DNA of 64,000 bases from Parcubacteria group bacterium Gr01-1014_8 (GTDB lineage Bacteria > Patescibacteriota > Minisyncoccia > Phycocordibacterales > UBA2100): NCBI GenBank assembly GCA_007376385.1, contig VMGC01000001.1:256001-320000 (forward strand), in the 5' to 3' direction. This document shows, one piece after another, positions 21,909 to 63,778 of this stretch (the stretch's first letter is position 1; every line of letters starts with the position of its first letter). The notes under the pieces are model-generated. The model was not told the origin of the DNA and did no database searches. It worked only from the letters and a program-made list of their open reading frames with translations. Position numbers and translations under genes: made by a program.

Positions 21909-22784
21909 ATGGAAATGCGAAATACAGAGAGGAAAACGATCCTCGTTACGGGAGGCGCGGGATTTGTCGGCTCGCATTTGTGCCGTAGGCTTGTGAGAGA
22001 TGGTCACAAAGTCATTTCGCTCGACAACTACTTCACTGGCTCGAAAGAAAATCATGTCGAGGGCGTTGAGTATCGAGAAGGACACACGAAGGATATCGAG
22101 GAGCACGTTACAGAAACACCCGACCTCATCTATCATCTCGGCGAATATTCCCGTGTTGAGATAAGTTTGAATGAGCCTGCGCTCGTGTGGGATCTGAACA
22201 AAGCCGGCACCTTCGGCGTTCTTGAGTTTTGGCGCAAGAAAGGCTGCAAGCTGGTGTATGCAGGCTCGTCGACGAAATTCGGCGACGGCGGGATGGGTCG
22301 CGACCAAAGTCCGTATGCATGGACGAAGGCGTCGAATACTGAACTTACAAGAAACTACGGTGCTTGGTACAAGCTGCCGTATGCCATCACATATTTCTAC
22401 AATGTGTATGGCCCCGGAGAGAGGGCGGGGGCGTATGGAACTCTTATCGAGATATTCAGACAAAAATTCTTGAAGAAAGAACCATTGACCGTGGTTGCAC
22501 CGGGAACGCAAAAAAGGAACTTCACGTATATCGACGATATTATCGAGGGATTAGTCCTGGTCGGCGAAAAAGGAGAAGGAGATGATTTTGGGCTTGGCGA
22601 TGTGCGGGAATATTCGGTGCTTGAGATCGCAAAGATGTTCGGCGGCCCTGTCGAAATGCTCCCGACCAGGGCCGGGAATCGCATGAGCTCTTCTGTTGAT
22701 ACGTCAAAAGCATCAGCCATCGGATGGAGCGTCAAGCACAGCGTCGAGGACTACATCAAGAACATTATCTCTGCGGGAACATGA
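21909..22784 (+). CDS. UDP-glucuronate decarboxylase-like NAD-dependent epimerase/dehydratase (UXS family)
   Basis: KTILVTGGAGFVGSHLCRRLVRDGHKVISLDNYFTGSKENH; catalytic YxxxK in an SDR extended fold. Confidence 0.8.
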   Translation: MEMRNTERKTILVTGGAGFVGSHLCRRLVRDGHKVISLDNYFTGSKENHVEGVEYREGHTKDIEEHVTETPDLIYHLGEYSRVEISLNEPALVWDLNKAGTFGVLEFWRKKGCKLVYAGSSTKFGDGGMGRDQSPYAWTKASNTELTRNYGAWYKLPYAITYFYNVYGPGERAGAYGTLIEIFRQKFLKKEPLTVVAPGTQKRNFTYIDDIIEGLVLVGEKGEGDDFGLGDVREYSVLEIAKMFGGPVEMLPTRAGNRMSSSVDTSKASAIGWSVKHSVEDYIKNIISAGT

Positions 22785-22825
22785 ACCCCGTGAGATAAAC
22801 TATTTGACCGTGAAGAAACGCTGAT

Positions 22826-24094
22826 ATGGAGAAAGAAAATGAAGCTCATTCCTCTGAATCGAAGGGTATATCTCATGGGGTGAAGCGCGTTTTAATTTTC
22901 TCCCTAGGATATTTTCCGAATGCCGTCGGGGGCGCAGAAGTCGCTATCAAAGAGATAACGCAGCGCATTCCAGATATCGAGTTCCACATGGTGACGAATC
23001 GCTACGATTCGACACTGCCGAAGGTAGAGAAAATCGGCAGCATACTCGTACACCGCATCGGCATCAGTTCGAAGAGGCCTTCGATAGCTGATCTGCGCCG
23101 GTGGCCGCTGCACCTCAACAAATTTTTGTATCAATTTCTTGCAGCGTGGAAAGCGATCAAGCTCCATCGAACATATAAGTACGATGCACTGTGGGCGATG
23201 ATGGCGCATTCATGCGGCGTGCCAGCCGCGATATTCAAAATGAGGAATATGGATGTGCCCTACGTGCTAACGCTCCAAGAAGGTGATCCGCCTGCCTATA
23301 TTGAGAGAAAGATGTGGCTTCTGTGGCCCTTCTTCAAACGAGCGTTTACCTCGGCCGATATCGTTCAGGCGATCTCGACGTTTCTTGGAAAATGGGCGAC
23401 GCACCGCGGCTTCAAAGGACCCTTGGAAATAATTCCAAATGCAGTTGATATTCAGCATTTTTCCGAAGAACCGCCGCTGTATTTGGTGAATGAAATAAAA
23501 GATGGACTCAGTAAGAGAATGGGGGACGTATTTGTGATAACAACGTCGCGTTTGGTACATAAGAATGCCGTGGACGATGTCATTCGAGCGCTTCCGAAAC
23601 TCCAAGAGAATGTGAAGTTCATTATTCTCGGCGTCGGACCGGACGAAGCTAAACTAAAAAAACTGGCGAAAGATCTGAATGTCGCGAAGCGGGTTCAATT
23701 TGTGGGGCAAGTGAGCCATGCCGATTTGCCTAAATATTTGAAGGCGTGCGATATTTTTATCCGTCCGTCGCGCTCTGAAGGCATGGGCAACTCCTTTGTT
23801 GAAGCGATGGCGGTGGGGCTACCGGTCGTCGCAACACAAGAAGGCGGCATTGCCGATTTTCTATTCGACGAGCGTAGGGATCCCGATAAGCCAGTGACGG
23901 GGTGGGCAGTGGACAAGGATTCGCCGGAACAAATAGTGCTTACGATAAAGGAGATCATCTCGCGGCCGGAAAAAGTGCGCGCGGTAGTCGCGACGGCGCG
24001 GGAGACGGTGAAAGAGAAGTATGATTGGGATATTATCGCGGGCGATATGTGGGAGAAAGTGTTTGCGAGATTGTTTGAAGTTCGCTCGAAATGA
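22826..24094 (+). CDS. Glycosyltransferase family 4 (GT-B, group 1)
   Basis: C-terminal RPSRSEGMGNSFVEAMAVGLPVVATQEGGIADF GT4 motif. Confidence 0.8.
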   Translation: MEKENEAHSSESKGISHGVKRVLIFSLGYFPNAVGGAEVAIKEITQRIPDIEFHMVTNRYDSTLPKVEKIGSILVHRIGISSKRPSIADLRRWPLHLNKFLYQFLAAWKAIKLHRTYKYDALWAMMAHSCGVPAAIFKMRNMDVPYVLTLQEGDPPAYIERKMWLLWPFFKRAFTSADIVQAISTFLGKWATHRGFKGPLEIIPNAVDIQHFSEEPPLYLVNEIKDGLSKRMGDVFVITTSRLVHKNAVDDVIRALPKLQENVKFIILGVGPDEAKLKKLAKDLNVAKRVQFVGQVSHADLPKYLKACDIFIRPSRSEGMGNSFVEAMAVGLPVVATQEGGIADFLFDERRDPDKPVTGWAVDKDSPEQIVLTIKEIISRPEKVRAVVATARETVKEKYDWDIIAGDMWEKVFARLFEVRSK

Positions 24095-24130
24095 AGAGAG
24101 CCGCACTGCTGCAGCTCCCTTCTCCTGTGG

Positions 24131-24301: not shown

Positions 24302-24363
24302 GGTCTCCTCCTCTACCCGCGAGGAATATAGCGCCATTTATAGCAGTGCGCTAGAGTATTCAA

Positions 24364-25503
24364 ATGCGCATTCTTATCGCGACAGGAATTTTTGAACCTG
24401 AAGCGGGCGGGCCAGCGACATACACGCCCAAAATAGCGGCAAAACTGGTCCAAGCGGGCAATGAAGTTACAGTTATTACTTATTCTGATAAGAAAAAACA
24501 CGATCTTGACTCAAGATATCCCTTTCGGTTGATACGAGTCGTTCGAGGAAAATACAAGCTCGCGAATTATTATTCTTTCTTTCGAGCAGTCTCGCCGGAA
24601 TTGGTTGGAGTAGATGTCACGTATAGCCTGGATTGGATAGCTGCGGGCCTCCCTCTCACTCTTGCAGCGATGATAAAGAATATCCCTGTCGTCATCCGCG
24701 TGGGCGGGGATTACATTTGGGAAAAATATCTGCAGTCCGGCGGGTCTCCGATGCCTCTTGCCGAGTTCAATGAACGCGGCCTGTATAAACATCAAAGAAT
24801 ACTTTTTTGGATAATTATCGTCGTATTGAGGCGCGCGTTCGTCGTGTTCAACAGCGATGCGGAGCGGGATATGTACCGCCGCTTGTATGGTCTACGAGAG
24901 GAGAGGACCGGCGTCATACACAATCCTATGCCGGAGAAGGGTTGGCTAGGAGTTGTGCGTGAGAAACCGAACAATGAACTGGTGTTTGCGGGGCGATTCA
25001 TAGCGATGAAAAACATCACGTCGCTCCTTGCGGCATATGCGACGGCGCGCACTCCATTTCGTCTTGTGCTGATGGGAGAAGGTCCGGAAGAACAGAGGAT
25101 ACGAGGGGCTATCAAAGCGCTAAAGCTCGAAGAAAAGGTATCTATATATCCGCCCATGAGGCAGCAAGAACTTTTTGAAAGGATAAAGAATTCTCGTGCG
25201 CTTGTGTTGCCGAGCTGGACTGATATTGCCCCGAACCAAGTCAGTGAAGCCATCGCGCTCGGCATTCCGATCCTTGTTACCAAAGAGAATTTTCTCGTCT
25301 TTAGAGACCAATTGCCAGACATGCTCGACCCGGCATCCGTCGAAGACATCCGCCAAAAACTGGAAATGCTTGCTGACGAGATGAGGTACCAGAGTTTTGC
25401 CGAGAAGTGCCGTCGCATTGAATTTAAGAATAGTTGGGACGATGTCGTTACGAAGCATCTTGGTGTTTTTGGGCACGTACTTTCGAAGGGCACGCGTCAT
25501 TGA
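24364..25503 (+). CDS. Glycosyltransferase family 4
   Basis: MRILIATGIFEPEAGGPATY N-terminus and GT-B C-terminal domain. Confidence 0.8.
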   Translation: MRILIATGIFEPEAGGPATYTPKIAAKLVQAGNEVTVITYSDKKKHDLDSRYPFRLIRVVRGKYKLANYYSFFRAVSPELVGVDVTYSLDWIAAGLPLTLAAMIKNIPVVIRVGGDYIWEKYLQSGGSPMPLAEFNERGLYKHQRILFWIIIVVLRRAFVVFNSDAERDMYRRLYGLREERTGVIHNPMPEKGWLGVVREKPNNELVFAGRFIAMKNITSLLAAYATARTPFRLVLMGEGPEEQRIRGAIKALKLEEKVSIYPPMRQQELFERIKNSRALVLPSWTDIAPNQVSEAIALGIPILVTKENFLVFRDQLPDMLDPASVEDIRQKLEMLADEMRYQSFAEKCRRIEFKNSWDDVVTKHLGVFGHVLSKGTRH

Positions 25504-25542: not shown

Positions 25543-27513
25543 ATGCGCATCTTAAGTATTTCCAGTGATTGGAACGTCTTTAGTGAAGACAGTGCCGTCG
25601 CGAGACGCCAGCGTCTGCAGGCTTCAACCGTAGAGCGGTTCGATGTGTTCATGCCGCATGGGCCCGACGAGACCATTCATATCGCAGGAAACGGGACCAT
25701 GCGCGGGTTTGGTCCCGGCAAATTGCGAGGCATGTTTCGCATGTTATGGTCCGCATTCAGGATGCAAAGACCGGATATCGTTTCTTCACAAGACCCATTC
25801 TTTCTAGGACTTCTTGCCTGGAAGATCGCAAAAGTGCGGGGAGCAAAACTGCATATACAGATACACACCGATCTTTTTGACCCGCATTTTGCAGCGCATT
25901 CTTTCACCAATCGAATTCGATTGCTGCTCGCGCGTTTCGTTCTCTCGCAAGCAGATTGCGTTCGCGTCGTGTCGGAGCGCATTAAGCGCTCATTGGATAA
26001 ATTGCATCTTCGTGTCCCGGTTTCTGTTCTTCCGGTTTTTATTGATGCGGAGGTCATTGACGCGGCGCAACCTTTGCAGAAACGCAGCGTATATCCCGAT
26101 TTCGAGAAAATAATTCTAGTCGTCAGCAGACTCGAGCCGGAAAAGAATGTTACTGCCGCCCTTCGCGCTCTGCCGGACATATTGAAAGCGCAGCCGGGCA
26201 CCGGGCTCGTCATCGTCGGCGATGGCTCTTTGCGCGAGCAGCTCGAACGTCTTGCGAAAGAGCTCGGCATTGAGAAACGCGTTGCTTTTGCAGGCTCTAC
26301 AAAGCCATATCCATACTACAAAGCTTCAGATCTATTACTTTCGACCTCTGATTACGAAGGATATGGGATGGTGGTGGTAGAAGCGCTCTATGCAGGATGT
26401 CCTGTCATCTCGTTCGATACTGGCGTCGCTCGCGAAGCAGGTGCCATAATCGTGACTCCAGAGGTTCTTGCGAGCACTGCGGCTGCCACGTTATCAGAAG
26501 GCCGCCGTGGGAAACTCGCTTTTACTTTGCCGAGCGAACAGGAATATCGTGACCTATGGCACTCACAGATCGCGCTTACGCTGGCACTGAAGAGTTCTGC
26601 CTCCGCGCCAAAAGCGGCATCGAGAAAGGCGTTGAAAATAGGTTTTATCGGGCAAGGCTTCATCGGCAAGAATTACGCGGATGACCTCGAGCGACGCGGT
26701 ATCTCGGTCACACGGTATGCTCTCGAAGAACCGTATCGGCAAAATAAAGACAAGATAAAAGATCGCAACATCGTTTTCATTGCCGTTCCAACACCGACCA
26801 CACCGAAAGGGTTCGACTATTCGATTGTGCGAGAGGCTGTCGGTCTTGTCGGGAAGGGAAGTGTTGCCGTCATCAAATCCACGCTTGCCCCGGGCACGAC
26901 AGAAAAGATACAGAAAGAATTCCCGGGCGTCATCGTGATGCACTCTCCCGAATTTCTGCGGGAAGCAACGGCGGCGTTTGATGCTGCGAGACCGGATAGG
27001 AATGTCATCGGGCTTGCCATCGATTCGCCCGAGAACAGAGAGCGTGCAAAGGACGTTCTTTCCATTCTGCCGTCTGCTCCGTTCGAGCTCATTTCAACGT
27101 CGAGAGAAGCGGAACTTATTAAGTACGCGGGGAATGCGTGGCTGTATATGAAAGTCGTATACGCGAATATGCTGTACGACCTTTCAGAGCGTTTGCATAT
27201 CAATTATCAAAGCGTGCGAGAGGGTCTTGCCGCGGACCCGCGCGTTGGAAGGTCGCACCTAGATCCGATCCACGCCAGCGGGCATCCTGGAGCTAATCCG
27301 GGTCGTGGGGCGGGAGGTCACTGTTTCATCAAAGATTTTGCCGCACTTCGCATGGAGTATGAGCAAGCTTTGCCGGATGATACTGCCGGAATCGCAGCCT
27401 TCCGTAAACTCGAGGAGAAAAATGTGCAGCTGCTTCTTGAGAGCGACAAAGACCTCGAACTCCTGCGCGGTGTATACGGAGATGAACTAGAGAATTTCCG
27501 AAGGAAGAAATAA
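25543..27513 (+). CDS. Fusion protein: N-terminal GT4 glycosyltransferase plus C-terminal NDP-sugar dehydrogenase (UDP-glucose/GDP-mannose dehydrogenase family)-like domain
   Basis: Residues ~1-340 are GT4-like (EGYGMVVVEALYAGCPVISF). From KIGFIGQGFIGKNYA the C-terminal part is UDPGDH-like: IVFIAVPTPT, VIKSTLAPGTT, MHSPEFLREATAAFD. Confidence 0.7.
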   Translation: MRILSISSDWNVFSEDSAVARRQRLQASTVERFDVFMPHGPDETIHIAGNGTMRGFGPGKLRGMFRMLWSAFRMQRPDIVSSQDPFFLGLLAWKIAKVRGAKLHIQIHTDLFDPHFAAHSFTNRIRLLLARFVLSQADCVRVVSERIKRSLDKLHLRVPVSVLPVFIDAEVIDAAQPLQKRSVYPDFEKIILVVSRLEPEKNVTAALRALPDILKAQPGTGLVIVGDGSLREQLERLAKELGIEKRVAFAGSTKPYPYYKASDLLLSTSDYEGYGMVVVEALYAGCPVISFDTGVAREAGAIIVTPEVLASTAAATLSEGRRGKLAFTLPSEQEYRDLWHSQIALTLALKSSASAPKAASRKALKIGFIGQGFIGKNYADDLERRGISVTRYALEEPYRQNKDKIKDRNIVFIAVPTPTTPKGFDYSIVREAVGLVGKGSVAVIKSTLAPGTTEKIQKEFPGVIVMHSPEFLREATAAFDAARPDRNVIGLAIDSPENRERAKDVLSILPSAPFELISTSREAELIKYAGNAWLYMKVVYANMLYDLSERLHINYQSVREGLAADPRVGRSHLDPIHASGHPGANPGRGAGGHCFIKDFAALRMEYEQALPDDTAGIAAFRKLEEKNVQLLLESDKDLELLRGVYGDELENFRRKK

Positions 27514-27517: not shown

Positions 27518-28669
27518 TTGCCCCGTGAGATAACTCACTCAGCGATGAATTCTAAATCTAGTATGAGTCATGATACGTCGAATGAGGAGGGAATGCGGAC
27601 CGGACTATCTCATGGGGTAAACCTACTCGTATGCGCGCAGACGGTAGATATTAAAGATCCGTTCAATGGCTTTTTTGTCGAATGGCTCCGAGAAATGTCG
27701 AGTCATTTTTCCAGCGTCCACGTCATCAGCCTCTCTGCCGGCGAATATTATCTTCCTTCAAATGTCCGAGTTCTCTCTCTTGGAAAGGAATCGGTGAGAG
27801 GTCCGCGCTTTGTCGTACGGTTCCGCTACATCTGGCTCTTACTTCAATACAGCTGGTCTCTGCGCCGTGAATACGATTCAGTGTTCGTGCATCAAAGTCA
27901 GGAGTTTATATTAAGCGCAGGATTTCTGTGGGCGCTTCTTCGAAAGCCTGTGTACCTGTGGCGCAATCACTATGCAGGAAATATCCTCACCGATATCGCC
28001 GCATACTTTTCGCGAAAGGTTTTCTATACCTCACATTTTTCCTATACCGCAAAATACAAGCATTCGGTTGCCATGCCTGTCGGTGTCGATGTTGAACAAT
28101 TCGCCCCAGGAGGGGATGTTGAGCGTAGAGCGCGTTCTATTCTTTTCCTTGGTCGCATCACACCTTCCAAGCGTCCGCATATGTTGCTTGAAGCGTTGTC
28201 GATAGTGCAGAAAAAGTCGATTTCTTTCAAAGCATCTCTCTACGGCTCATACCTTCCTTCCGATAGTACATATCGCGAGGAGCTTATTCAGAAAGTGAAT
28301 ACATCTGCTTTGAAAGACAGTGTCACATTTCATGAGGGGATACCGCACAAAGATGTGCCGCGTGTTTTCAATCAGTTCGAGCTGTACGTGAATCTTGCGC
28401 AAAGCGGGATGCTCGATAAGACGATATTTGAAGCCGCGGCATGCGGCGCGGTTCCGTTAACTGCGAGCAAGGACTATGCAGACATGGCAGGGGAACAATT
28501 TCTTTTTGAGAATGCAGAGGACCTCGCGAAGAAACTTGAACAATTCTTGGGAATGCCAGAAAACAAAAAAGACGAACTTCGTTCGCGCATTCGCGCTCTT
28601 GTCGTGCAAAAACACTCGCTCAAAGAATTGGGTCGTCTGCTCTCTGTTCAGATGGTTGCGTTGAATTGA
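27518..28669 (+). CDS. Glycosyltransferase family 4
   Basis: GT-B group 1 architecture; EAAACGAVPLTASKDYADMAG C-terminal motif. Confidence 0.75.
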   Translation: MPREITHSAMNSKSSMSHDTSNEEGMRTGLSHGVNLLVCAQTVDIKDPFNGFFVEWLREMSSHFSSVHVISLSAGEYYLPSNVRVLSLGKESVRGPRFVVRFRYIWLLLQYSWSLRREYDSVFVHQSQEFILSAGFLWALLRKPVYLWRNHYAGNILTDIAAYFSRKVFYTSHFSYTAKYKHSVAMPVGVDVEQFAPGGDVERRARSILFLGRITPSKRPHMLLEALSIVQKKSISFKASLYGSYLPSDSTYREELIQKVNTSALKDSVTFHEGIPHKDVPRVFNQFELYVNLAQSGMLDKTIFEAAACGAVPLTASKDYADMAGEQFLFENAEDLAKKLEQFLGMPENKKDELRSRIRALVVQKHSLKELGRLLSVQMVALN

Positions 28670-28803: not shown

Positions 28804-29793
28804 ATGTTGGACAAAAAAACTATCGTCGTAACTGGAGGTTTAGGGCATATTGGCTCGCGCCTTATCCGTTCGTTCGGCTCCACTGTGAATGAGATACGGA
28901 TAGTTGATAACCTCGCAACACAGCGATACCCCTCACTCTTTGATTTGCCCGAAACACCGCGAGTCCGATTTTATGAGGAGGATATTCTGACGGCGAATCT
29001 CGGAGAGATTTTCAAAGGTGCTGATGTAGTGGTGCATCTCGCGGCGATTACGAATGCTGAAGCGACTGTCGGGAAAGAGGAAGAAACAGAGGCGGTGAAT
29101 TTTGAAGGCTTGAAACGCGTTGCTGACGCGTGCGAAAAGACAGGAGCCAAGCTCATTTTTCCCTCGACGACCAGTGTGTACGGCAGTCAGGAAGCAGTTG
29201 TCGACGAGACGTGCGCAGACCTTCAGCCTCAAAGCCCATATGCTGTCTCAAAATTGAAGGCAGAGGAATACCTGACGGGGAAGCGCGGAACGGGCTTAAA
29301 GTTCGTCACTCTCCGACTCGGTACAATATTCGGCTGGTCAGTGGGAATTCGTTTTCATACGGCAGTCAATAAATTTATCTGGCAGGCGGTGAACGGGAAG
29401 GAGATAACGGTCTGGAAGACAGCGTGGGAACAGAAGCGCCCATATCTCGATCTTGGTGACTGTGTCCGCGTATTTAATCATGTCATCGAGAGTGACCGAG
29501 CGTCGAGCGAGGAAATACTGAGCGCAGCAGCGCGAACGTACGATTTGTTCGACGGAGAGATATACAATGTCGTCACGAAGAATTTTACCGTGCGCGACGT
29601 TGTCGAAGGCATTCAGAAATTTGTTCCCTCGCTTCGCGTCAAATACGTTGATTCAAAGATAATGAACCAGCTGTCTTATGATGTAGTCGCCGACAAAATT
29701 GCAAGCAAAGGGTTTGTGCCAAAAGGAGACCTTAGTGTTGCGATAGGAGAGACAATCGATAAATTAAAAACGATTGTACGCACTTCAAATTAA
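28804..29793 (+). CDS. NAD-dependent nucleotide-sugar epimerase/dehydratase
   Basis: Start trimmed to MLDKKTIVVTGGLGHIGSRLI; extended SDR, YAVSKLKAE catalytic motif. Confidence 0.8.
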   Translation: MLDKKTIVVTGGLGHIGSRLIRSFGSTVNEIRIVDNLATQRYPSLFDLPETPRVRFYEEDILTANLGEIFKGADVVVHLAAITNAEATVGKEEETEAVNFEGLKRVADACEKTGAKLIFPSTTSVYGSQEAVVDETCADLQPQSPYAVSKLKAEEYLTGKRGTGLKFVTLRLGTIFGWSVGIRFHTAVNKFIWQAVNGKEITVWKTAWEQKRPYLDLGDCVRVFNHVIESDRASSEEILSAAARTYDLFDGEIYNVVTKNFTVRDVVEGIQKFVPSLRVKYVDSKIMNQLSYDVVADKIASKGFVPKGDLSVAIGETIDKLKTIVRTSN

Positions 29794-49065: not shown

Positions 49066-49070
49066 TTTCT

Positions 49071-53423: not shown

Positions 53424-53479
53424 TTACTCATGGGAGCGGGCTATAGTGGGGTGATAATGTGTGGAAGGGACACAATCGT

Positions 53480-54391: not shown

Positions 54392-54396
54392 GTGAG

Positions 54397-55565: not shown

Positions 55566-55591
55566 AAGGAAGCCGTGATAGCATCGCCATA

Positions 55592-56641: not shown

Positions 56642-57963
56642 GACAACAGCATATGAGTCTTGATAATGTATCAATGCGTCTCCGCTCTCCCGAGGAAATC
56701 GAGGCGTTAGAAACCAACATTCTCACCTATGAGAACCCAGATGCGGATCCGAAATCGAAACGTGTTCTAGTGTCAGCGGATAACCCCGGGGCGTTCAATG
56801 CGATGCAACATATTGTTCGCGCGCTTATGCACGATTCTCGTTGCAGTGGGGTAGTTGCTCTTATGTCCGGCAAAGCAATGGAGAACTTCGACAAAGAATG
56901 TCCGGGATTTACTCATGTGCGCGATGAAGAAACGAGACCCGATGGTTCAAAGCGACTGAAGGGCATCTTTGAAGAGTTAGGCGATCTTTCAGAAAAACAC
57001 CCATTCGATGTGGCGCTTGTGTCCATTTCTGCGAAAGACGGTCCAGAAACATCGCTGCTCTTCGCAGGCAAAGGAGTGTTCGGTAAAAAGGGTTTTCTTG
57101 GGTTCGGAAGAATGAAAACGTATATGTACGTTGATGCGTGGGGAGGTCCAGGAGGCGCATTCAAACTACCGACCGATCAAATGGAAAAGATGGATGGTAT
57201 CTTTTGTAACGATAATCTCGCAAAGGGCATTATCCATCGTGCATATCCTAACTTTCCAGAGCAACGTATACAGGCACTCGGTTCCCCTGTTGCAGAGCAT
57301 ATCGACCCCTCTCGTGTGAAAGAGAATCGGGAAAAGGCTCGACAAGAGCTTAAGATATCGAGCGACAGTTTTGTCGTATTTTATATTGGTGATCGAGCGC
57401 GCGACTATGAAGGCCACTCGATATATAACCCTAATTCGAACATCGAGACATTTGAAAAAACGACTGATGTCCTGAAAACATGGGCGCAGAAGGAGAAGAA
57501 CCGCAATCGGAAAATTGCCTTCATTACGCGGCCGCACCCTCGCGATGAAGAAAAGGCTCGTTTCGAGAGAGTGGTGAGAGCCACCGCGAATGATATGCCT
57601 CCAAATATTCAGATTGTGTTTGCAACCGATACTGACGGAGAGCGCGATCGTCGCTTGTTTGGGCTTTGTGCAGATGCAGCAAATGTGGTGGCTGGTATTA
57701 TTCCCACAGATGTGCAGATGGCGCCTTTGAGAGGCAGTAACGGCATATACCTCGCCTTTCCAGAGCGGGGGCTGGGGAAAGACATTCAGTTGCAGATTTG
57801 GGGGCCGCTTGTAGGTTCTGTGGAAACGGAGAGGATAAAAATTGTATCCTCGGCAGGTGGGCTGGAGCGTGCTTTCGACGCATTTCTACAGGAGACTTCA
57901 TATGGATCCTCGGCATCGTCGGCAGGGGCAACGGCAGGAATAGTTGAAACAATACTTCGGTAA
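56638..57963 (+). CDS. Hypothetical protein (441 aa), possibly GT-B-like; contains an RPHPRD motif
   Basis: No confident family; positioned between PseI-like and the HP-motif transferase paralog. Confidence 0.45.
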   Translation: MRQQHMSLDNVSMRLRSPEEIEALETNILTYENPDADPKSKRVLVSADNPGAFNAMQHIVRALMHDSRCSGVVALMSGKAMENFDKECPGFTHVRDEETRPDGSKRLKGIFEELGDLSEKHPFDVALVSISAKDGPETSLLFAGKGVFGKKGFLGFGRMKTYMYVDAWGGPGGAFKLPTDQMEKMDGIFCNDNLAKGIIHRAYPNFPEQRIQALGSPVAEHIDPSRVKENREKARQELKISSDSFVVFYIGDRARDYEGHSIYNPNSNIETFEKTTDVLKTWAQKEKNRNRKIAFITRPHPRDEEKARFERVVRATANDMPPNIQIVFATDTDGERDRRLFGLCADAANVVAGIIPTDVQMAPLRGSNGIYLAFPERGLGKDIQLQIWGPLVGSVETERIKIVSSAGGLERAFDAFLQETSYGSSASSAGATAGIVETILR

Positions 57964-57970: not shown

Positions 57971-59467
57971 ATGAAAGGCCTATTTATATTGCAGCGACGA
58001 TTTGCGTACATCGGCCATGAGATGGCGAAATTCCTTAAAGCGGACGGTGTTGCCGATGAATTTTGCGGGTACGTGCAAGTACGCGACGGCTATAGATTTC
58101 TGAAGGGCCAGAGCGATATCCGTTATACCGGATTAATTCTTGATGAGGACATACAGAAACAGTACAGAGATGAAAAACTTGATATCGCATATCTTGCGAA
58201 ACTTGAAGAAGAGTACGGCACGCTTTGGAAATATATCAATGTGGATCGCGTCATCAGTCACGGACAACTTGTGCGTGAGTACCCTTTTGACCGCTCGCCA
58301 TATACGCACGAAGAAATGCTCCGCATGGTGCAAGTGTATGCAAAGAACATCGAAGCGTTTCTTGATAGAGAGAAGCCGGATTTTGTCTTTGGCTACATAT
58401 TCGGCAGTCTCGGCATGCTTCTTCTCCATGACATGGCACAGAAACGCGGTATTCCAATTCTTACGACAATAGTTCCCTCGACGCGCGATCTTGTCTCGGT
58501 AACCGGTTCGTACGAGCGTATCACCGGAGTCGAAGAAAGGTTCCGCGACAATCTAAAGAAACCGTTAGAGCAGATAGAATCATACAGCGAAGCGCGGGAT
58601 TTTCTTGAAGAATTCCGCAGAAAACCCTTTGTCTATACGAAAGTCGTTGTTTCTCGGGTGAAGGGAGGACGCTTTGCGCAATTCTCGTTCTTAAGACCTC
58701 GGCAGGTGTTGTGGACTCTGTACTTCAATTTTTTCCACATTTTTATCGAATGGATGCGCGATAGCGAACGCCGCACAGACTACTCGACTGTGAACCCGTT
58801 TTTTCATGTGTATGACCATGTAAAGAGAAAATTACGCAACCTCGTCGGACTCAATGATCTCTATGATGTATTCGATACGTCGAAGTCGTACGCGTTTTTT
58901 CCCTTACAGTACGAGCCTGAAACGACGCTGCTTCTCCTCGCTCCGAACGAGACAGATCAAGTGCAGACGATTACTCGCACCGCCTGTTCGCTTCCTGCAG
59001 GCATGCTTCTGTATGTGAAAGAGCACCCTGGCATGACCCCGTACCGTCCGCGCGCGTTCTATCGCAGACTAAAAAAAATACCGAACGTCCGTCTCATGAA
59101 TCCCGCGCTTTCGAGTTTCGAGATCATCAAACACTGCAGATTGGTGACTGTTATCAGCGGTACGCCGGGCTGGGAGGCCGCCCTTCTCAAAAAACCAGTC
59201 ATCACGTTCGGCCACGTTTTTTACAATGCCTTGTCATTCATTGGAAAATACCGTGTGCCTGAAGAATTGCCGGAACTTGTCCGGAAGCAACTTAGCGTGC
59301 AAACAGATGATAAGGAATTGCTTGCATTCCTTGCTGCTCTTTTTGCGGATTGTGCGTCGCTTGACTTGATGTATTTGTGGGAGATAGAAGAAAACGAAGA
59401 AAAGCGCCGCGTAGGTTTCAAGAAGTTTGCGGATGTGCTCGCTGCGAAGATACGTTTGATAGAATGA
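57971..59467 (+). CDS. Capsule_synth (KpsS/LpsZ)-like GT-B protein with HP motif; putative CMP-ulosonic-acid glycosyltransferase; paralog of 42185..43606
   Basis: ORF track begins at a TTG (57944) overlapping the upstream gene; trimmed to ATG 57971. YVKEHPGMTPY … VTVISGTPGWEAALLKKPVITFGHVFY. Confidence 0.55.
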   Translation: MKGLFILQRRFAYIGHEMAKFLKADGVADEFCGYVQVRDGYRFLKGQSDIRYTGLILDEDIQKQYRDEKLDIAYLAKLEEEYGTLWKYINVDRVISHGQLVREYPFDRSPYTHEEMLRMVQVYAKNIEAFLDREKPDFVFGYIFGSLGMLLLHDMAQKRGIPILTTIVPSTRDLVSVTGSYERITGVEERFRDNLKKPLEQIESYSEARDFLEEFRRKPFVYTKVVVSRVKGGRFAQFSFLRPRQVLWTLYFNFFHIFIEWMRDSERRTDYSTVNPFFHVYDHVKRKLRNLVGLNDLYDVFDTSKSYAFFPLQYEPETTLLLLAPNETDQVQTITRTACSLPAGMLLYVKEHPGMTPYRPRAFYRRLKKIPNVRLMNPALSSFEIIKHCRLVTVISGTPGWEAALLKKPVITFGHVFYNALSFIGKYRVPEELPELVRKQLSVQTDDKELLAFLAALFADCASLDLMYLWEIEENEEKRRVGFKKFADVLAAKIRLIE

Positions 59468-59471: not shown

Positions 59472-60464
59472 ATGAAGATTTTGATTACAGGAGGAGCCGG
59501 CTTTATCGGGTATCATCTGGCGAAAAGACTTTCATCAGAGGGACACAATATAACGATTGCGGACAATTTCTTCCGCGGAAAGCGGGATGCTGAACTGGGG
59601 GCGCTATTAAAAAATCCGAACGTTCATCTCGTAGAGGCTGATCTATCGCAAAAAGACGCATGGAACGCCCTTGGGAAGGGATACGATCAGGTGTACCATC
59701 TCGTCGGTATCAACGGCACAAACCTGTTCTATGAAATTCCTCATGAAGTACTCCGTATTGGTGTTGCAAGTACGATGCATGCACTGGACTGGTTTCGGGG
59801 AGTGAACGGCGTGCCGGATGCAAAAATCCTATATACCTCAAGCAATGAGGCGTATGCGTCCGCACTTGAGGCGTATGGCTCGCTTCCGCTTCCCACACCG
59901 GAGAATGTGCCGCTTGTTATCGCGGACACGTACAACCCACGTTGGTCGTATGGAGGACAGAAGCTGATAGGGGAGCTGTTCTTTATTCATTACGCCAAGG
60001 CATATAACTTCCGGATGGTGATAGTGCGGCCGCACAATTTTTACGGACCTCGGTCAGGTTATGGACATGTTATTCCGGGGACGTTGGAAAAGATCAGAGT
60101 GAAGACGGATCCATTCCCGCTTCCCGGCGCAGACGAGACGCGTTCTTTTTGTTACATCGACGATGCGGTGGAAGCGATGCAGGTAGTTATGGGATCGCGC
60201 GCGACGGATGGAGGAACATACCACATCGGCAATCCGAACGAATTAAGCATGGAAGCGCTGGTTCAGGAAATATTCAATATTGCAAAGTGGCACCCGAAGA
60301 CACTTGAGAAAAAATTGTCTCCTGCGGGGAGCGTGAAGCGACGGCTCCCTGATGTGTCAAAGTTAAAGCGCGATACCGGTTGGGAGGCGAAAACTACTCT
60401 TGAGGAAGGTCTTAGGAAGACTGTGGAATGGTACCTTCTGAATCCGAAAGGAGATTCTCGCTAG
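59472..60464 (+). CDS. NAD-dependent nucleotide-sugar epimerase/dehydratase
   Basis: MKILITGGAGFIGYHLAKRL…, YGGQKLIGE catalytic YxxxK. Confidence 0.8.
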   Translation: MKILITGGAGFIGYHLAKRLSSEGHNITIADNFFRGKRDAELGALLKNPNVHLVEADLSQKDAWNALGKGYDQVYHLVGINGTNLFYEIPHEVLRIGVASTMHALDWFRGVNGVPDAKILYTSSNEAYASALEAYGSLPLPTPENVPLVIADTYNPRWSYGGQKLIGELFFIHYAKAYNFRMVIVRPHNFYGPRSGYGHVIPGTLEKIRVKTDPFPLPGADETRSFCYIDDAVEAMQVVMGSRATDGGTYHIGNPNELSMEALVQEIFNIAKWHPKTLEKKLSPAGSVKRRLPDVSKLKRDTGWEAKTTLEEGLRKTVEWYLLNPKGDSR

Positions 60465-61744
60465 AGATACGCATCAAAAAAAGATGCAAAGACCTTGATA
60501 ACATGGACTACGTGCGCTTTTGTTAATGCGGGGTGACAGCCGATGAAAACGCTCTGGTCCCGAATTGTGCGGGCGACGGGCAGTTCTCCCACTATACGCT
60601 GCGGTTCGTCTCGGAATGCCGGCTGGTCGGGGAGACATCCGCCAAAAAAAGGCCTTGTTTCTATACCCTTTGATTCGAGGCATTGGACGAATTCAAGACG
60701 AGAGAACGGGGCAGTTTTTTTTACTACGAACGGATACCCGTAATAGCTGTGGAATGCTCCCTTCGCTACTTTTGGGAGCTCGAGAAATTGTTCATATTTC
60801 TGGAATTTGTTGTTGTAGATCTGTATTGTTGCTATACGTTTTGCGTTCAACGCATCAAGTTTTTTTATTTGTTCGATACCGAGGGAAGCGGCTATGTCGG
60901 TCATACGGACGTTGTAGCCGATACGGGTGAAGATATAGCGCGCGTCAAATCCTGAAAGGACCTTGTCTTTATACGTGAACCGATTCGCATTCGCGATACT
61001 AGGAGGGAGTCTGCCAAATTCACGCAGCGATTGCAGCAGGTCGCGCATGGATTCATCGTTGGTAAATATCATGCCGCCTTCGCCTGTGGTTATGTTATGC
61101 GCCACAAAAAAACTGAGTGTCGCGATATCACCGAACGAGCCGACTTTTTTTCCGCCGATAGCCGCGCCATGCGCCTCGCAGCAATCTTCAAGGACGAGCA
61201 GGTCGTGTTTCTTTGCGATGCTCATGATGGCACCCATGTCCGCGGGATTACCGAAGGTATGCACCGGCATGATGACGCGCGTCTTCGGCGAGATCGCCTT
61301 TTCGACCCCTTTCGGGTCGATGTTCCACGAGGTCGGATCGATATCGACATAGACGGGGATGAGTCCGACTTGGATGATGGGGGAAGCGACAGTGGCGAAT
61401 GTCGTCGCAGGAAGAATGACCTCAGAACCCTTGGGGACAATTCCCGATGCGACAAGCGCCGAGAGAGCGAGCAGGTTAGCTGAAGAACCGGAATTTACGG
61501 CAACAGCGTACTTCACGCCAACATATTTCGCGCATGCATCCTCGAATTGCCTGACTTTTGGGCCCTGTGAGATCCTGAGGTCAATGAGCGACTGAAGCGC
61601 ATTTGTTATCTCCTTATGGTCAAAAACGGGCCAGCTGATGGTGACAATGCCGGGGGCGGGAACATTGTCATGCTTTTTCTCCTGCATGATCGTTTTAACC
61701 AGCGCGTTCAGTTTTGTGCGGGAGTTATTTTTTGTCTTTTTCAT
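60461..61744 (-). CDS. RfbH/DdhC-ColD-like PLP/PMP-dependent NDP-4-keto-6-deoxyhexose 3-dehydratase-like enzyme (DegT superfamily, His in place of the PLP lysine, no Fe-S cysteine motif)
   Basis: Collinear with Salmonella RfbH (NSGSSANLLALSAL; IPVYVDIDPTSWNID; VLEDCCEAHG; GSFGDIATLSFFVAHNITTGEGG; IGYNVRMTDIAAS; RIVGELPVARTIRDQSVFIGCHPALT). The position of the Schiff-base Lys reads AHN (His) as in E1/ColD. Region after REFGR lacks the E1 cysteine cluster. 427 aa. Confidence 0.7.
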   Translation of the reverse strand: MKKTKNNSRTKLNALVKTIMQEKKHDNVPAPGIVTISWPVFDHKEITNALQSLIDLRISQGPKVRQFEDACAKYVGVKYAVAVNSGSSANLLALSALVASGIVPKGSEVILPATTFATVASPIIQVGLIPVYVDIDPTSWNIDPKGVEKAISPKTRVIMPVHTFGNPADMGAIMSIAKKHDLLVLEDCCEAHGAAIGGKKVGSFGDIATLSFFVAHNITTGEGGMIFTNDESMRDLLQSLREFGRLPPSIANANRFTYKDKVLSGFDARYIFTRIGYNVRMTDIAASLGIEQIKKLDALNAKRIATIQIYNNKFQKYEQFLELPKVAKGAFHSYYGYPFVVKKTAPFSRLEFVQCLESKGIETRPFFGGCLPDQPAFRDEPQRIVGELPVARTIRDQSVFIGCHPALTKAHVVHVIKVFASFFDAYL

Positions 61745-62663
61745 TGTGCGTAAGAAAGTGAGTAATCGTCTTTTCCAGGCCGTCTTTCAGCGATGTGCGC
61801 GGCTTCCATGATAGAAACTTATTTGCTTTGGCAGTCGAGAGTCTGAATGGGGAAACCTCAATGCGTGCCGGGCGGGTGTCGGCATGCGAGGATACTATCG
61901 TAATTGTTTTTCCCAGTCGATGTTCCAATAGATTTTTTACGGTCTGGGCTATCTGTTTGAGAGCAATGGATCGGCCGCCTATGTTATATACCGCGTTCTG
62001 AACCTTTTGCGGTGCCCTCATGGCACAGAGGAATGCATCGGCAACATCTTCAACGTAAATGAAATTCTTTCGTATGGTGAGCGCGCCGACTGTAATTGTA
62101 TCGCTGGATATCATTTTTTGAATGACATCTGAAATGAACATCGAACGTGGCTGACCCGGCCCATAGACGCTGTCGAGTCGAAGAATAATGTACGGAATAT
62201 CGTACAGGCGTTGATAGGTTTCAAGCAGTGTCTCGCACATAATCTTTGCCGCTGTATAGGGTTCTATAGGGACAGGCCGTTTCTTTTCTGTGACTGTTCC
62301 GCTGTATGTTCCGTAGAGTCGATCTGTAGATGCAAAGATAATAAGCGGCTTCATTTCTTTTTTGCGGAATGTCTCAAGCACGTTCATCAGTATCGAGGTG
62401 TTGTGTTCTATTCTCTGTCGGGGTGCTTCCAAAGAAGCATTGATATCGATACTGCCGGCCAGATGGATGAACACATCGCAATTCTCTATCGCTTTCTCGA
62501 CCGATGCAGCATCGAGCAGGTTCGTCCGTATGTTTTTTACAGAAGGGATGGTCGCAGTCTCGTGTAAGAGCGCGGTGACGTTGAGTCCTTCGGCAGAGAG
62601 CTTTCTGCACACGTGAGAGCCGATAAAGCCGGCGGCGCCTGATACGACAACGTGAGTACTCAT
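61725..62663 (-). CDS. NAD-dependent nucleotide-sugar epimerase/dehydratase
   Basis: MSTHVVVSGAAGFIGSHVCRKL…; YTAAKIMCE catalytic motif. Confidence 0.8.
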   Translation of the reverse strand: MSTHVVVSGAAGFIGSHVCRKLSAEGLNVTALLHETATIPSVKNIRTNLLDAASVEKAIENCDVFIHLAGSIDINASLEAPRQRIEHNTSILMNVLETFRKKEMKPLIIFASTDRLYGTYSGTVTEKKRPVPIEPYTAAKIMCETLLETYQRLYDIPYIILRLDSVYGPGQPRSMFISDVIQKMISSDTITVGALTIRKNFIYVEDVADAFLCAMRAPQKVQNAVYNIGGRSIALKQIAQTVKNLLEHRLGKTITIVSSHADTRPARIEVSPFRLSTAKANKFLSWKPRTSLKDGLEKTITHFLTHNEKDKK

Positions 62664-63778
62664 ATTTCCGCTGCCGTCTGCAGTATTTTTCGTAATCTTA
62701 CCGCGAGGGTGCGATGGTCAAATTCAGATATTCGCTTGGCCGCGGCATGACTAAGTGTTTCGCGCATGTTCGGTGATTCTACGAGTTTTTCTATCGCTTT
62801 AGCAAGCGACACGGCGTCGTTGTCTTTGAACGTAAGAGTCGCCTCGCCTGCGAGCCATTCGAGTCCTCCTCCTTCGGGGACGACGACGGGACGGTGCACG
62901 GCAAGTGCTTCAAGGAGGAGTACCGATGAAAGTTCTTTGTGGAAGCGCGGATAGATGAATATGTCGCAATTGGCGAGTGTTGCATGCATTTCATGTTTTG
63001 ACACCCACCCTGGAAAATGAACAGTGTTCCCGATGCCGCGCGCCCTCGCTTGTTCTTGAAGTGCTTCACGTTCTGGGCCGTCGCCACTTAAGGTAACCGC
63101 TATCATTTCACGCTGCTGCTTCGGAAGAAGCGCAAGCGCATCTACGAGAAGGTTGAATCCCTTATCTTGGATCATGCGTCCCGATGCGAAGATACGCACG
63201 ACATTATCCTTTTTTTCGTGCGGCAATTTCTGCAATAGAGTGTTGTCGACAAAATCAGGCATCACGGAATGGTTCGACGAGGGGATGCGGATGCCGAATG
63301 CGCGGTAGCGTGCGGCGAGTTGTGGAGTGGTAAAGATAAAGTGGTCTATATGAGGTGCGAGGAACTTGTTTAAAAATCGTTCTATGTATTGACGTATGCG
63401 TGCGCGGAATGTGCTTGCGTTCCATGCGAGAGATTCGCGATTGTAAAATGCGACGACCGGCTTGCCGCCGAGTATGCGGTAGAGTGCGCCTCCGTAGGCA
63501 AATTGTCCTTCAATATGAAATACGTCCGTACTCTGCTGATGTTTACGGAGGATTTGAAGTATCTTCCAATGGATCTTGTGAAGCGTTTTTGGGGAAGAGA
63601 TGGATTCCTCGATGACTGTGTATGGCAGGTTCTCCAGTTTATTTAGCTCCGAAAAGACCGTAACTACTTGTACGTCCTCGCCAAGAGCTTGCATATCGCG
63701 GACTTTTAGGTCGAGGTCCGGTACAGAGCCGCCCGCGGATTCAAGATTGATTTTTGATGTAACGAACGTGACGCGCAT
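62660..63778 (-). CDS. Glycosyltransferase family 4
   Basis: GT-B group 1; …PRFHKELSSVLLLEALAVHRPVVVPEGGGLEWLAG…. Confidence 0.75.
   Translation of the reverse strand: MRVTFVTSKINLESAGGSVPDLDLKVRDMQALGEDVQVVTVFSELNKLENLPYTVIEESISSPKTLHKIHWKILQILRKHQQSTDVFHIEGQFAYGGALYRILGGKPVVAFYNRESLAWNASTFRARIRQYIERFLNKFLAPHIDHFIFTTPQLAARYRAFGIRIPSSNHSVMPDFVDNTLLQKLPHEKKDNVVRIFASGRMIQDKGFNLLVDALALLPKQQREMIAVTLSGDGPEREALQEQARARGIGNTVHFPGWVSKHEMHATLANCDIFIYPRFHKELSSVLLLEALAVHRPVVVPEGGGLEWLAGEATLTFKDNDAVSLAKAIEKLVESPNMRETLSHAAAKRISEFDHRTLAVRLRKILQTAAEI

Follow-up and report, generated by a model that had tools for sequence, protein, structure and literature searches.

A widespread fusion of a UGM-like flavoprotein domain to a NeuB-type synthase marks an uncharacterised variant of nonulosonic acid biosynthesis in a Parcubacteria glycan locus

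We analysed a window of 64,000 nucleotides from Parcubacteria group bacterium Gr01-1014_8 (contig VMGC01000001.1, positions 256,001 to 320,000), a groundwater member of the candidate phyla radiation (CPR). Positions 21909-63778 of this window, hereafter the island, are a native, intact glycan-biosynthesis locus of at least 42 kb. Within it lies a five-gene cassette (44859-51221) centred on a protein in which a flavin adenine dinucleotide (FAD) domain resembling UDP-galactopyranose mutase (UGM) is fused in frame to a complete NeuB-type synthase. This fusion-centred cassette is a new element, a variant of nonulosonic acid biosynthesis that is both widespread and uncharacterised.

Surface charge, recognition by phages and hosts, and immune evasion are all influenced by nonulosonic acids (sialic, pseudaminic and legionaminic acids), and ultra-small CPR bacteria are thought to live attached to hosts via their surfaces. 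To our knowledge, every characterised bacterial route to these sugars starts from UDP- or GDP-N-acetylglucosamine (GlcNAc), with a dedicated hydrolase freeing the hexose. A conserved synthase bearing a UGM-like flavoenzyme, encoded beside Rml-type genes and a two-domain NAD(P)-binding protein that we call NADunk, suggests that the pathway is entered differently and that new sugars may result. Our literature search, which was incomplete and does not exclude publication, brought up no work on CPR nonulosonic acids and none on a NeuB fused to a flavoenzyme.

A UGM-like flavoprotein domain fused to a NeuB-type synthase

Families were assigned with Pfam cut-offs and NCBIfam equivalog cut-offs, which were applied in place of trees for the placement of NeuB-type synthases and cytidylyltransferases. 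The cassette comprises the following genes (scores are in bits; "vs" and ">" precede cut-offs).

44859..45632, plus strand: classical short-chain dehydrogenase/reductase (SDR), PtmA-like below cut-off, first cassette gene (PF13561 161; PtmA NF050062 127 vs 350)
45626..48028, plus strand: in-frame fusion of a UGM-like FAD domain (residues 1-~445) to NeuB+SAF (residues ~455-800) (PF03102, PF08666, PF03275, PF01593)
48025..49065, plus strand: NADunk, two-domain NAD(P)-binding protein of 346 residues, constant partner of the FAD-NeuB fusion
49071..49835, plus strand: cytidylyltransferase CT2 (CTP_transf_3), presumed CMP-activating enzyme of the cassette (PF02348 97; 6oew E 7e-36)
49875..51221, plus strand: class III (glutamate-1-semialdehyde-aminomutase-like) aminotransferase, AT3 (PF00202 153; NF004856 273 vs 486)

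The product of 45626..48028 is 800 residues long and 100% identical to a protein of Gr01-1014_8 encoded on a contig of 407,897 bp, with the FAD domain in the N-terminal ~445 residues and a complete NeuB+SAF synthase in the C-terminal ~350. An initial annotation, made from the sequence before this work, had listed this second NeuB-type synthase of the island, which is indeed present, and had missed its fusion to a FAD domain of ~450 residues. The synthase part matches PF03102 with 301 bits (cut-off 22) and the SAF family PF08666 with 36 bits (cut-off 21), and falls below the equivalog cut-offs of both NeuB_NnaB (TIGR03569, 375.2 vs 399.65) and PseI (TIGR03586, 302.8 vs 340.25). It aligns end to end with NeuB from Neisseria meningitidis (E 1e-57), its GFSDHT and ERHFT motifs corresponding to GLSDHT and ERHFT of 4ipi/1xuu, so that both metal-binding histidines, which we take to be H215 and H236 of the meningococcal enzyme, are kept. 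A KdsA identity was rejected for both NeuB-like synthases of the island, which match NeuB/PseI and not KdsA.

As for the FAD domain, its strongest Pfam match is Amino_oxidase (PF01593, 62 bits), alongside NAD_binding_8 (PF13450, 51 bits) and GLF (PF03275, 33.5 bits, above a cut-off of 26.3), and its GxGxxG motif is invariant in the family. When a profile built from 11 homologues was compared with the PDB, the 17 best matches were all UGMs, with a full-length alignment to the Trypanosoma cruzi enzyme (E 3e-21), whereas amine oxidases and demethylases matched over the first ~60 residues only, which correspond to the dinucleotide-binding motif. The substrate site of Klebsiella pneumoniae UGM is presumably formed by Y155, W160, R174, N270, R280, Y314, R343, Y349 and D351, with R174 and R280 binding the UDP diphosphate. 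Seven of these nine (Y155, W160, R174, R280, Y314, Y349 and D351) have invariant equivalents in the family, in an alignment of which two of the three segments are individually insignificant. Identity to solved UGMs is ~15-20%, as estimated by eye from the alignments. Since the domain fails the UGM equivalog model (TIGR00031, 60.1 vs 303.75), it belongs to the UGM superfamily without being a UGM orthologue. Moreover, the domain always comes joined to NeuB, so a nucleotide-furanose meant for a furanosyltransferase is presumably not what it makes.

These features can also be read in another way, with the FAD domain as a redox tailoring enzyme of amine-oxidase or dehydrogenase type with either the aldose or the completed nonulosonate as its substrate, for instance to supply a keto group for AT3, while the free aldose would come from an unrecognised hydrolase or from NADunk. 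Such a role would suit the top Pfam match to Amino_oxidase, the closest named NCBIfam models (PRK07208 "hypothetical protein" oxidoreductases), the large family of non-fused relatives (FAD proteins of 420-480 residues without known function), the lack of conservation at the equivalents of R343 and N270, and partner genes (the SDR, AT3 and a GFO/IDH/MocA oxidoreductase) that point to oxidation and transamination chemistry. However, the PDB comparison singles out UGMs, the equivalents of R174, R280, Y155, Y314 and Y349 are invariant, and the fusion of the domain ahead of NeuB, seen in 77 of 82 loci, is what would be expected of a step before condensation. We consider a redox role possible, if rather improbable.

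The fusion is widespread and keeps a recurrent set of partners

At E <= 1e-10, a protein search with the fusion gave 766 proteins. Nearly all of the top 120 are ~800 residues long and have both domains, and their source names cover Patescibacteria, Anaerolineales, Elusimicrobia, Gammaproteobacteria, Thermodesulfobacteriota and Omnitrophota. Among 1.84 billion cluster representatives searched with HMMER, the fused clade amounts to ~45 clusters at 50% identity, set apart by score from the large family of stand-alone FAD proteins of 420-480 residues. When a single genome for each GTDB species was scanned with the profile of the FAD domain, 86 relatives emerged, ~15 of them from Patescibacteria species. 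Other carriers are Nitrospiraceae, Elusimicrobia, Omnitrophota, Terriglobia, Planctomycetes, Magnetococcales, SAR11, SAR116, SAR86, Prochlorococcus, a contig labelled Leptospira, two archaeal metagenome-assembled genomes (MAGs), and the cultured Arcobacter iocasae KX21116 and Rheinheimera sp. YQF-1. NeuB lies directly downstream in the same frame in 77 of the 82 FAD-domain loci, and four of the other five are on short contigs.

Neighbourhoods were compared by mapping the proteins of the window onto 50 loci with long flanks. NADunk is found near the fusion in 88% of these loci, immediately downstream in 29 of 44. The PtmA-like SDR and a CTP_transf_3 cytidylyltransferase each occur in 66% (the latter within 10 kb in 33 of 50), an RmlB-like dehydratase in 48%, an ABC exporter in 42%, RmlA-like genes and AT3 in 28% each, with CT2 and AT3 paired in many loci, and RfbH-like genes in 20%. 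SDRs resembling those at the right end of the island recur as well, as do aldo/keto reductases (AKRs) beside FAD-NeuB in other genomes. Named homologues of NADunk are all annotated as "hypothetical" or as NAD(P)-binding-domain proteins, and its structural model (predicted local distance difference test, pLDDT, 93) finds no structural match over the whole protein; its Rossmann half alone resembles known dehydrogenases.

The 44859-51221 block is conserved gene for gene in other Patescibacteria (L011 and L014-L018), and Arcobacter (L080) has the same five genes with AT3 relocated upstream of the SDR. In Patescibacteria L014-L017, a single run holds RmlA, RmlB, RmlD-like, C-methyltransferase, SDR, FAD-NeuB, NADunk, CT2, AT3 and ABC exporter genes, while in SAR86, Arcobacter and a spirochaete MAG (L064), RmlA/RmlB lie directly upstream of the fusion. 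The simplest natural version of the pathway is a minimal CPR locus (L006/L013, 7431-13279 on a 516-kb contig) that consists of a cytidylyltransferase, RmlA-like, RmlB-like, FAD-NeuB and an extended SDR, flanked by housekeeping genes (FUR/Zip and RuvX/DUF5652). Its RmlA-like and RmlB proteins are, respectively, 63% and 57% identical to those of the window. Because RmlA/RmlB genes are frequent, directly adjoining partners, including in this minimal locus, the dTDP branch would feed the fusion synthase. No NeuC (PF02350) or PseG-type gene was found within 10 kb of the fusion in the eight loci that were annotated with Pfam.

The initial annotation had regarded such investment in acidic sugars as unusual for a small-genome lineage. 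This was overstated, as ~15 other Patescibacteria species genomes carry the fusion gene. The island is not exceptional for its lineage because same-clade relatives carry similar cassettes: of seven mapped Patescibacteria with long flanks, six have the cassette and one has the minimal locus. Elsewhere, on a 175-kb JGI metagenome contig (L088), the fusion is found in a Wzx/Wzy-type capsule/exopolysaccharide locus with Poly_export, Wzz, Wzy_C and a Glycos_transf_4 priming enzyme, and hence the same synthase serves different assembly machineries in different lineages.

Three Nitrospiraceae loci (L087, L019 and L020) have only the FAD-NeuB and NADunk genes, in non-glycan surroundings and with no cytidylyltransferase nearby. 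This arrangement would suit an account in which the two proteins turn a common aldehyde into a 2-keto-3-deoxy acid that is soluble and not part of any glycan (a metabolite, an osmolyte or the precursor of a cofactor), their presence in glycan loci being secondary. Nevertheless, ABC exporters, glycosyltransferases and sugar-nucleotide enzymes usually accompany the fusion, as does a cytidylyltransferase in two-thirds of the loci, and the pair of the window sits inside a glycan operon, with 4-bp overlaps with its neighbours. We regard this account as highly improbable.

The cassette differs from legionaminic acid pathways

The second module had initially been described as Leg/ptm-like. On that reading, it makes legionaminic acid, decorated or not, from UDP-/GDP-GlcNAc, and the dTDP branch is separate, yielding 3-amino and/or 3-C-methyl 6-deoxyhexoses for the same glycan. 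Several observations are in keeping with this: the fusion NeuB scores better with NeuB_NnaB (375) than with PseI (303), the cassette SDR has a weak PtmA match (127 bits), two CTP_transf_3 genes are present, and the FdtA, DegT and C-methyltransferase genes would be enough for independent dTDP-sugars. Yet the defining families are far below their cut-offs. LegB (TIGR04180, cut-off 475) reaches at best 142 on the RmlB gene and 138 on 61725, LegC (TIGR04181) 247 vs 420 on the PseC gene, and PtmA 127 vs 350. Neither a NeuC/LegG-type hydrolysing epimerase (PF02350) nor a second N-acetyltransferase was detected with Pfam and NCBIfam among the island genes. In addition, orthologous RmlA/RmlB genes abut the fusion gene in other genomes, the five-gene minimal locus included. 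We know of no characterised Leg pathway with a UGM-like domain on its synthase, nor of one with a counterpart of NADunk or of the class III aminotransferase. A Leg/ptm route is therefore unlikely, and the 44859-51221 cassette probably represents a distinct type of pathway.

The cassette lies in an intact, native glycan locus

According to the open reading frame (ORF) map of the window, 21909-63778 contains 38 consecutive intact genes, is 96% coding and has 4-bp start/stop overlaps between many genes. No frameshift, internal stop, pseudogene or gene fragment was seen among the 38 genes in this map. An ORF at 24021-24395 was discarded as spurious: it overlaps real genes and has no family match. 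With Pfam and NCBIfam, 35 of the 38 genes belong to sugar-nucleotide, nonulosonate, glycosyltransferase or export families, which bears out the surface-glycan locus of ~42 kb initially proposed. Beyond these, 54846 has sub-threshold Pfam matches only, and 36627 (275 residues) and 56653 (436 residues) match no family. We are highly confident that the island is an intact glycan locus with two synthases.

Recent horizontal acquisition of the island was considered and rejected. GC content is flat over the whole window (~0.49), the island and the 21.8 kb before it correlate in tetranucleotide usage at 0.93, the level of within-region controls (0.91-0.94), and GC at third codon positions is 0.54 in the island vs 0.50 in the upstream flank.

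The genes to the left of the cassette are as follows (GT4, glycosyltransferase family 4).

21909..22784, plus strand: extended-SDR NDP-sugar epimerase/dehydratase, 291 residues (PF01370 150; no NCBIfam equivalog reached)
22826..24094, plus strand: GT4 glycosyltransferase a (PF00534 128; PF13439)
24364..25503, plus strand: GT4 glycosyltransferase b (PF00534 60)
25543..27513, plus strand: GT4 with a partial nucleotide-sugar dehydrogenase-like domain, 656 residues (PF00534 104; PF03721/PF00984; no PF03720; TIGR03026 124 vs 190)
27518..28669, plus strand: GT4 glycosyltransferase c (PF00534 49)
28804..29793 (refined start), plus strand: extended-SDR NDP-sugar epimerase/reductase (PF01370 124)
29797..30972, plus strand: TylCIII-type sugar C-methyltransferase (PF08484 121; PF08421 32.3 vs 31.3)
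30993..31721, plus strand: short RmlD-like SDR, 242 residues (RmlD profile positions 1-148 of 285 only; 83 vs 224)
31718..32164, plus strand: RmlC-like cupin, 3,5-epimerase family (PF00908 65; TIGR01221 46 vs 156)
32312..32743, plus strand: FdtA/WxcM-like 3,4-ketoisomerase (PF05523 126)
33026..34126, plus strand: DegT-family sugar aminotransferase (PF01041 359; no equivalog reached)
34123..35091, minus strand: RmlB, dTDP-glucose 4,6-dehydratase (TIGR01181 413.4 > 365.1)
35072..35839, minus strand: RmlA-like sugar-1-phosphate nucleotidyltransferase, 255 residues (PF00483 201; TIGR01207 238 vs 361)
36069..36620, plus strand: class I S-adenosylmethionine (SAM) methyltransferase, Methyltransf_24 (PF13578 46)
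36627..37454, plus strand: protein of 275 residues (no Pfam or NCBIfam match)
37451..38581, plus strand: GT4 glycosyltransferase d (PF00534 74)
38592..40403, plus strand: ABC exporter, fused transmembrane and nucleotide-binding domains, HepA/MsbA/PglK-like, candidate glycolipid flippase (PF00005, PF00664)
40400..41128, plus strand: cytidylyltransferase CT1 (CTP_transf_3, SpsF/6OEW-like; PF02348 118)
41125..42183, plus strand: GFO/IDH/MocA oxidoreductase, GFO (PF01408 46)
42185..43606, plus strand: Capsule_synth-like putative ulosonic-acid transferase 1 (PF05159 34.5 vs 20)
43609..44589, plus strand: NanM-family putative sugar O-methyltransferase (TIGR04371 75 > 44)

Those to its right are the following.

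51304..52287, plus strand: PseB-like UDP-GlcNAc 4,6-dehydratase, inverting (TIGR03589 395.9 vs 407.75; PF02719 305)
52284..53423, plus strand: PseC aminotransferase (TIGR03588 459 > 423.5)
53480..54391, plus strand: AKR (PF00248 145)
54397..54849, plus strand: GNAT N-acetyltransferase, weakly PseH-like (PF13302 42; TIGR03585 42.6 vs 93.1)
54846..55565, plus strand: probable SAM methyltransferase, 239 residues (sub-threshold Methyltransf_25/11/23, E 0.01-0.1; LDVGCASGR motif)
55592..56641, plus strand: PseI pseudaminic acid synthase (TIGR03586 475.2 > 340.25)
56653..57963, plus strand: orphan GT-B-fold protein, 436 residues, candidate PseG substitute or further transferase
57971..59467, plus strand: Capsule_synth-like putative ulosonic-acid transferase 2 (PF05159 31 vs 20)
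59472..60464, plus strand: extended-SDR NDP-sugar dehydratase/epimerase (PF01370 138)
60461..61744, minus strand: RfbH/E1-like DegT-family pyridoxal/pyridoxamine phosphate enzyme (NF011936 381 vs 423)
61725..62663, minus strand: extended-SDR NDP-sugar epimerase/dehydratase (PF01370 169)
62660..63778, minus strand: GT4 glycosyltransferase e (PF00534 99)

Assembly, export and the NDP-6-deoxyhexose branch

An assembly/export block would consist of six GT4 transferases, the orphan GT-B protein and the MsbA/PglK/HepA-like ABC exporter. The exporter is present as initially predicted, and scores 300 bits with HepA_fam, 260 with MsbA and 209 with PglK, each below the equivalog cut-off. GT4 genes number six (22826, 24364, 25543, 27518, 37451 and 62660), and not the seven or more counted at first. 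In one of them (25543-27513), the GT4 is joined to a region resembling a nucleotide-sugar dehydrogenase that covers profile positions 71-278 of 413 and is devoid of the UDP-binding C-terminal domain, an unusual architecture.

For the dTDP branch, the predicted RmlB (at equivalog level), RmlA-like, FdtA, DegT, RmlC-like and TylCIII-type C-methyltransferase genes are all there, while the RmlD-like gene corresponds to the N-terminal half of RmlD only. RmlA, RmlC and RmlD are recognised at Pfam family level and remain below their equivalog cut-offs (238 vs 361, 46 vs 156 and 83 vs 224, respectively). The RmlA-like protein and RmlB would produce an NDP-4-keto-6-deoxyglucose, which would then be tailored by the FdtA-like isomerase, the DegT aminotransferase, the RmlC/RmlD-like proteins, SDRs, the RfbH-like enzyme and the TylCIII-type C-methyltransferase. 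The dTDP branch, for which the initial annotation foresaw 3-amino and/or 3-C-methyl sugars, is probably not independent, since RmlA/RmlB orthologues directly adjoin the fusion elsewhere. In related genomes the genes of this branch run on into the FAD-NeuB cassette without a break, which suggests that the dTDP-type sugars are precursors and not end products. Of the other tailoring genes foretold, the AKR, class III aminotransferase, GFO/IDH/MocA and SDR genes are all present by Pfam. Three methyltransferases were expected, and three do have family support (29797, 36069 and 43609), to which 54846 adds a probable fourth.

Between the rmlA-like gene (minus strand) and the methyltransferase gene 36069 (plus strand), the intergenic segment 35880-35983 contains an 18-bp near-perfect inverted repeat around two smaller hairpins. 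Its predicted RNA fold has a minimum free energy of -62.3 kcal/mol (z -3.7), matched by none of 200 shuffled sequences. It has no Rfam match, and its arm sequence is found nowhere else in the window. The divergent glycan operons may use it as a leader or regulatory element.

The first 21.7 kb of the window carry ordinary genes: PdxS/PdxT, two DUF4430 proteins, an M48 protease, a PHO4 transporter, a DUF4015 hydrolase, MurC/MurD-type ligases, a TrwB-like coupling protein and a lamin-tail-domain (LTD) protein. The ligases, MurD-like (10792-12138) and MurC-like (14167-15465), fit peptidoglycan synthesis in this CPR bacterium and are unrelated to the island. The LTD protein (20817-21764, PF00932 54 bits) is directly upstream of the island and is preceded by the TrwB/VirD4-like type IV coupling protein (19192-20820). 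LTD proteins are probably surface-exposed, which makes this one a conceivable glycosylation target. The S-layer, pilin or flagellin-like target evoked initially was pure speculation. No glycan target, priming phosphoglycosyltransferase, Wzx/Wzy, ligase or oligosaccharyltransferase was found in the 64-kb window. At its other end, the glycan locus may extend past the window because a minus-strand ORF (63790-64000), which terminates just beyond the last GT4 gene (62660..63778), runs off the window end.

The pseudaminic branch, cytidylyltransferases and candidate transferases

The Pse-like module proposed initially is real. PseC and PseI are above their equivalog cut-offs and PseB is just below, its next-best model, FnlA, scoring far lower than TIGR03589 (395.9 vs 407.75). 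From the initial gene list, the PseB-like, PseC-like and PseI-like members hold, whereas the GNAT protein resembles PseH weakly (42.6 vs 93.1). Two absences had gone unnoticed. No ORF of the island matches the UDP-sugar hydrolase PseG in Pfam and NCBIfam, and PseF (TIGR03584) gives 26.6 vs 205.7 on CT1 and no match on CT2. The best candidate for the missing UDP-releasing (PseG) step is the orphan protein encoded at 56653, for which a GT-B fold is predicted from an alignment of 8 sequences with a model pLDDT of 65, and which may instead be a further transferase. The Pse branch would thus comprise PseB-like, PseC, GNAT and PseI proteins, the orphan GT-B protein in the role of PseG, and one SpsF-like cytidylyltransferase for CMP activation.

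Both cytidylyltransferases announced for the island are present. CT1 and CT2 are paralogues with 41% identity, both of the CTP_transf_3 family (PF02348). They pass this general model only and reach no KdsB, PseF or other equivalog. In the PDB they match the uncharacterised 6oew best and KdsB enzymes next, ahead of any NeuA. A Kdo function was rejected, as KdsB models cover the N-terminal half only with 47-79 bits vs cut-offs of 155-281, and 6oew, not KdsB, is the best PDB match. CT1 and CT2 appear to resemble the SpsF type. In Bacillus subtilis, an SpsF-type cytidylyltransferase is required for the display of legionaminic acid (PMC7439481).

One Capsule_synth-like protein follows each nonulosonate branch. 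The two (42185 and 57971) have a common C-terminal domain with a KEHP motif and unrelated N-terminal halves, and the BFO_1060 family model (NF046086) gives 27.3 vs 200 for 57971 and no match for 42185. An HP motif has been described for the Tannerella forsythia Pse/Leg transferases of the BFO_1060 family (PMC5420450). The products of 42185 and 57971 probably work like nonulosonate transferases, although they lie outside that family.

A proposed pathway

Starting from the observed gene content, intactness, families, fusion, phylogenetic breadth and neighbourhoods, we infer a substrate, a product and a role for the flavin domain, along with roles for NADunk, AT3 and the AKR and an acceptor for the glycan. 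The Rml-type branch would provide the cassette with an NDP-6-deoxyhexose. UGM acts through a flavin-sugar adduct. In a similar manner, the reduced flavin of the UGM-like domain would attack C1 of the sugar, the nucleotide would leave, and the adduct would open to an iminium, so that the domain would release a ring-opened aldose or hand it to NeuB, standing in for the usual hydrolase. For the substrate class, a precedent is offered by Fcf2 of E. coli O52, reportedly a UGM homologue active on dTDP-D-fucose. The fused NeuB domain would then condense the aldose with phosphoenolpyruvate into a 9-deoxy-non-2-ulosonic acid, which the SDR, NADunk, AT3, GFO, AKR and the NanM-type O-methyltransferase may tailor by oxidation, amination and O-methylation. 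Finally, CT2 would form the CMP-sugar, and a Capsule_synth/BFO_1060-like transferase would add the activated acid to the glycan.

The best overall explanation of the data, which we consider moderately probable, is therefore a native glycan locus of four blocks in which the cassette is fed by an NDP-6-deoxyhexose and the flavin domain unloads the nucleotide. The specific conjunction of flavin-mediated unloading with an Rml-type precursor is put forward tentatively. It is conceivable, but we would not call it likely, that the fusion and NADunk define an unrecognised route to nine-carbon ulosonic acids from Rml-type NDP-6-deoxyhexoses and not from UDP- or GDP-GlcNAc, with flavin displacing the nucleotide where other routes have a NeuC/PseG/LegG hydrolase, and that this route yields a new class of nonulosonic acids. 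Such acids might, for example, be devoid of a 5-N substituent, be aminated after condensation, or be O- or C-methylated.

A number of observations weigh against this proposal. As for the enzyme itself, the equivalents of N270 and R343 of UGM are not conserved, two of the three alignment segments with the K. pneumoniae enzyme are individually insignificant, the UGM equivalog score is low, and the nearest non-fused relatives of the FAD domain are uncharacterised oxidoreductases of PRK07208 type. As for its surroundings, RmlA/RmlB accompany the fusion often but not everywhere, and glycan loci of all kinds commonly carry Rml genes. Arcobacter L080 has a PF02350 epimerase 4 kb downstream of the fusion. 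In Nitrospiraceae L087 (UBA2166, 10001-13489), L019 and L020, FAD-NeuB and NADunk are isolated, with neither cytidylyltransferase nor sugar-nucleotide genes within 10 kb, which means that the precursor may be a common metabolite. Furthermore, a second NeuB fused to a CTP_transf_3 cytidylyltransferase follows FAD-NeuB and NADunk in L003 (13472-15223, 583 residues), L030, L031, L033, L061 and L079. Such loci, from several phyla, hold two NeuB domains, which complicates the question of which NeuB makes the final sugar. Within the island, which of CT1 and CT2 goes with which branch is an arbitrary choice, and the orphan GT-B model is of low confidence (pLDDT 65), a GT-B fold being the most that can be said of it.

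Implications

Surface glycans take up at least 42 kb of a genome that is probably ~1 Mb or less (a lineage estimate; the contig measures 408 kb). The fusion family extends to marine bacteria that rank among the most abundant, so its product could be a surface sugar that is common in the environment and has so far gone unseen. If the proposal is true, new sugars would decorate the surfaces of CPR bacteria and of abundant lineages in the environment such as SAR11, SAR86, SAR116, Prochlorococcus, Nitrospirae and Omnitrophota. Cultured carriers of the fusion exist in Arcobacter iocasae KX21116 (L080) and Rheinheimera sp. YQF-1 (L081).

Comparison with known systems

The pseudaminic branch recalls the CMP-Pse pathway of Campylobacter jejuni and Helicobacter pylori (PseB, C, H, G, I and F) in that 51304-56641 holds PseB-like, PseC, GNAT and PseI genes in one operon. 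However, there are no PseG and PseF equivalogs, the GNAT protein is weakly PseH-like, and the operon is interspersed with an AKR gene and that of a probable methyltransferase. The only candidates in the island for the missing steps are the orphan GT-B protein and the SpsF-like cytidylyltransferases. As in pathways of the FdtA/FdtB/FdtC and TylCIII/EvaC types, the island contains RmlA-like, RmlB, FdtA-like, DegT and TylCIII-family C-methyltransferase genes, but it has neither an FdtC-type N-acyltransferase nor a 2,3-dehydratase, the latter being needed for the characterised substrates of TylCIII-type enzymes. Like the Tannerella forsythia transferases (Tanf_01245/TFUB4_00887/BFO_1060; PMC5420450) and the beta-Kdo transferases of KpsC/KpsS type, 42185 and 57971 pass the Capsule_synth model, carry an HP motif and adjoin a nonulosonate branch. 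They differ in being far from the BFO_1060 family model (27 vs 200) and in their unrelated N-terminal halves.

The cassette shares with the CMP-Leg pathways of C. jejuni (LegB/C/H/G/I/F and Ptm) and B. subtilis (SpsM/C/D/G/E/F, PMC7439481) a NeuB nearer to NeuB_NnaB than to PseI, CTP_transf_3 cytidylyltransferases and a PtmA-like SDR. In contrast to them, the island has no equivalents of LegB, LegC, LegH and LegG, and its synthase is fused to a UGM-like domain. This domain is akin to UGM (Glf) in passing the GLF Pfam model, in having UGMs as its top PDB matches and in the apparent conservation of seven substrate-site equivalents, and departs from it in failing the equivalog, in its low identity (~15-20%) and in the changed equivalents of R343 and N270. 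The closest parallel to the minimal CPR locus, with its RmlA-like, RmlB-like, SDR and UGM-like components, is the dTDP-D-fucofuranose pathway of Escherichia coli O52 (RmlA-RmlB-Fcf1-Fcf2), in which Fcf2 is reportedly a UGM homologue that acts on dTDP-D-fucose.

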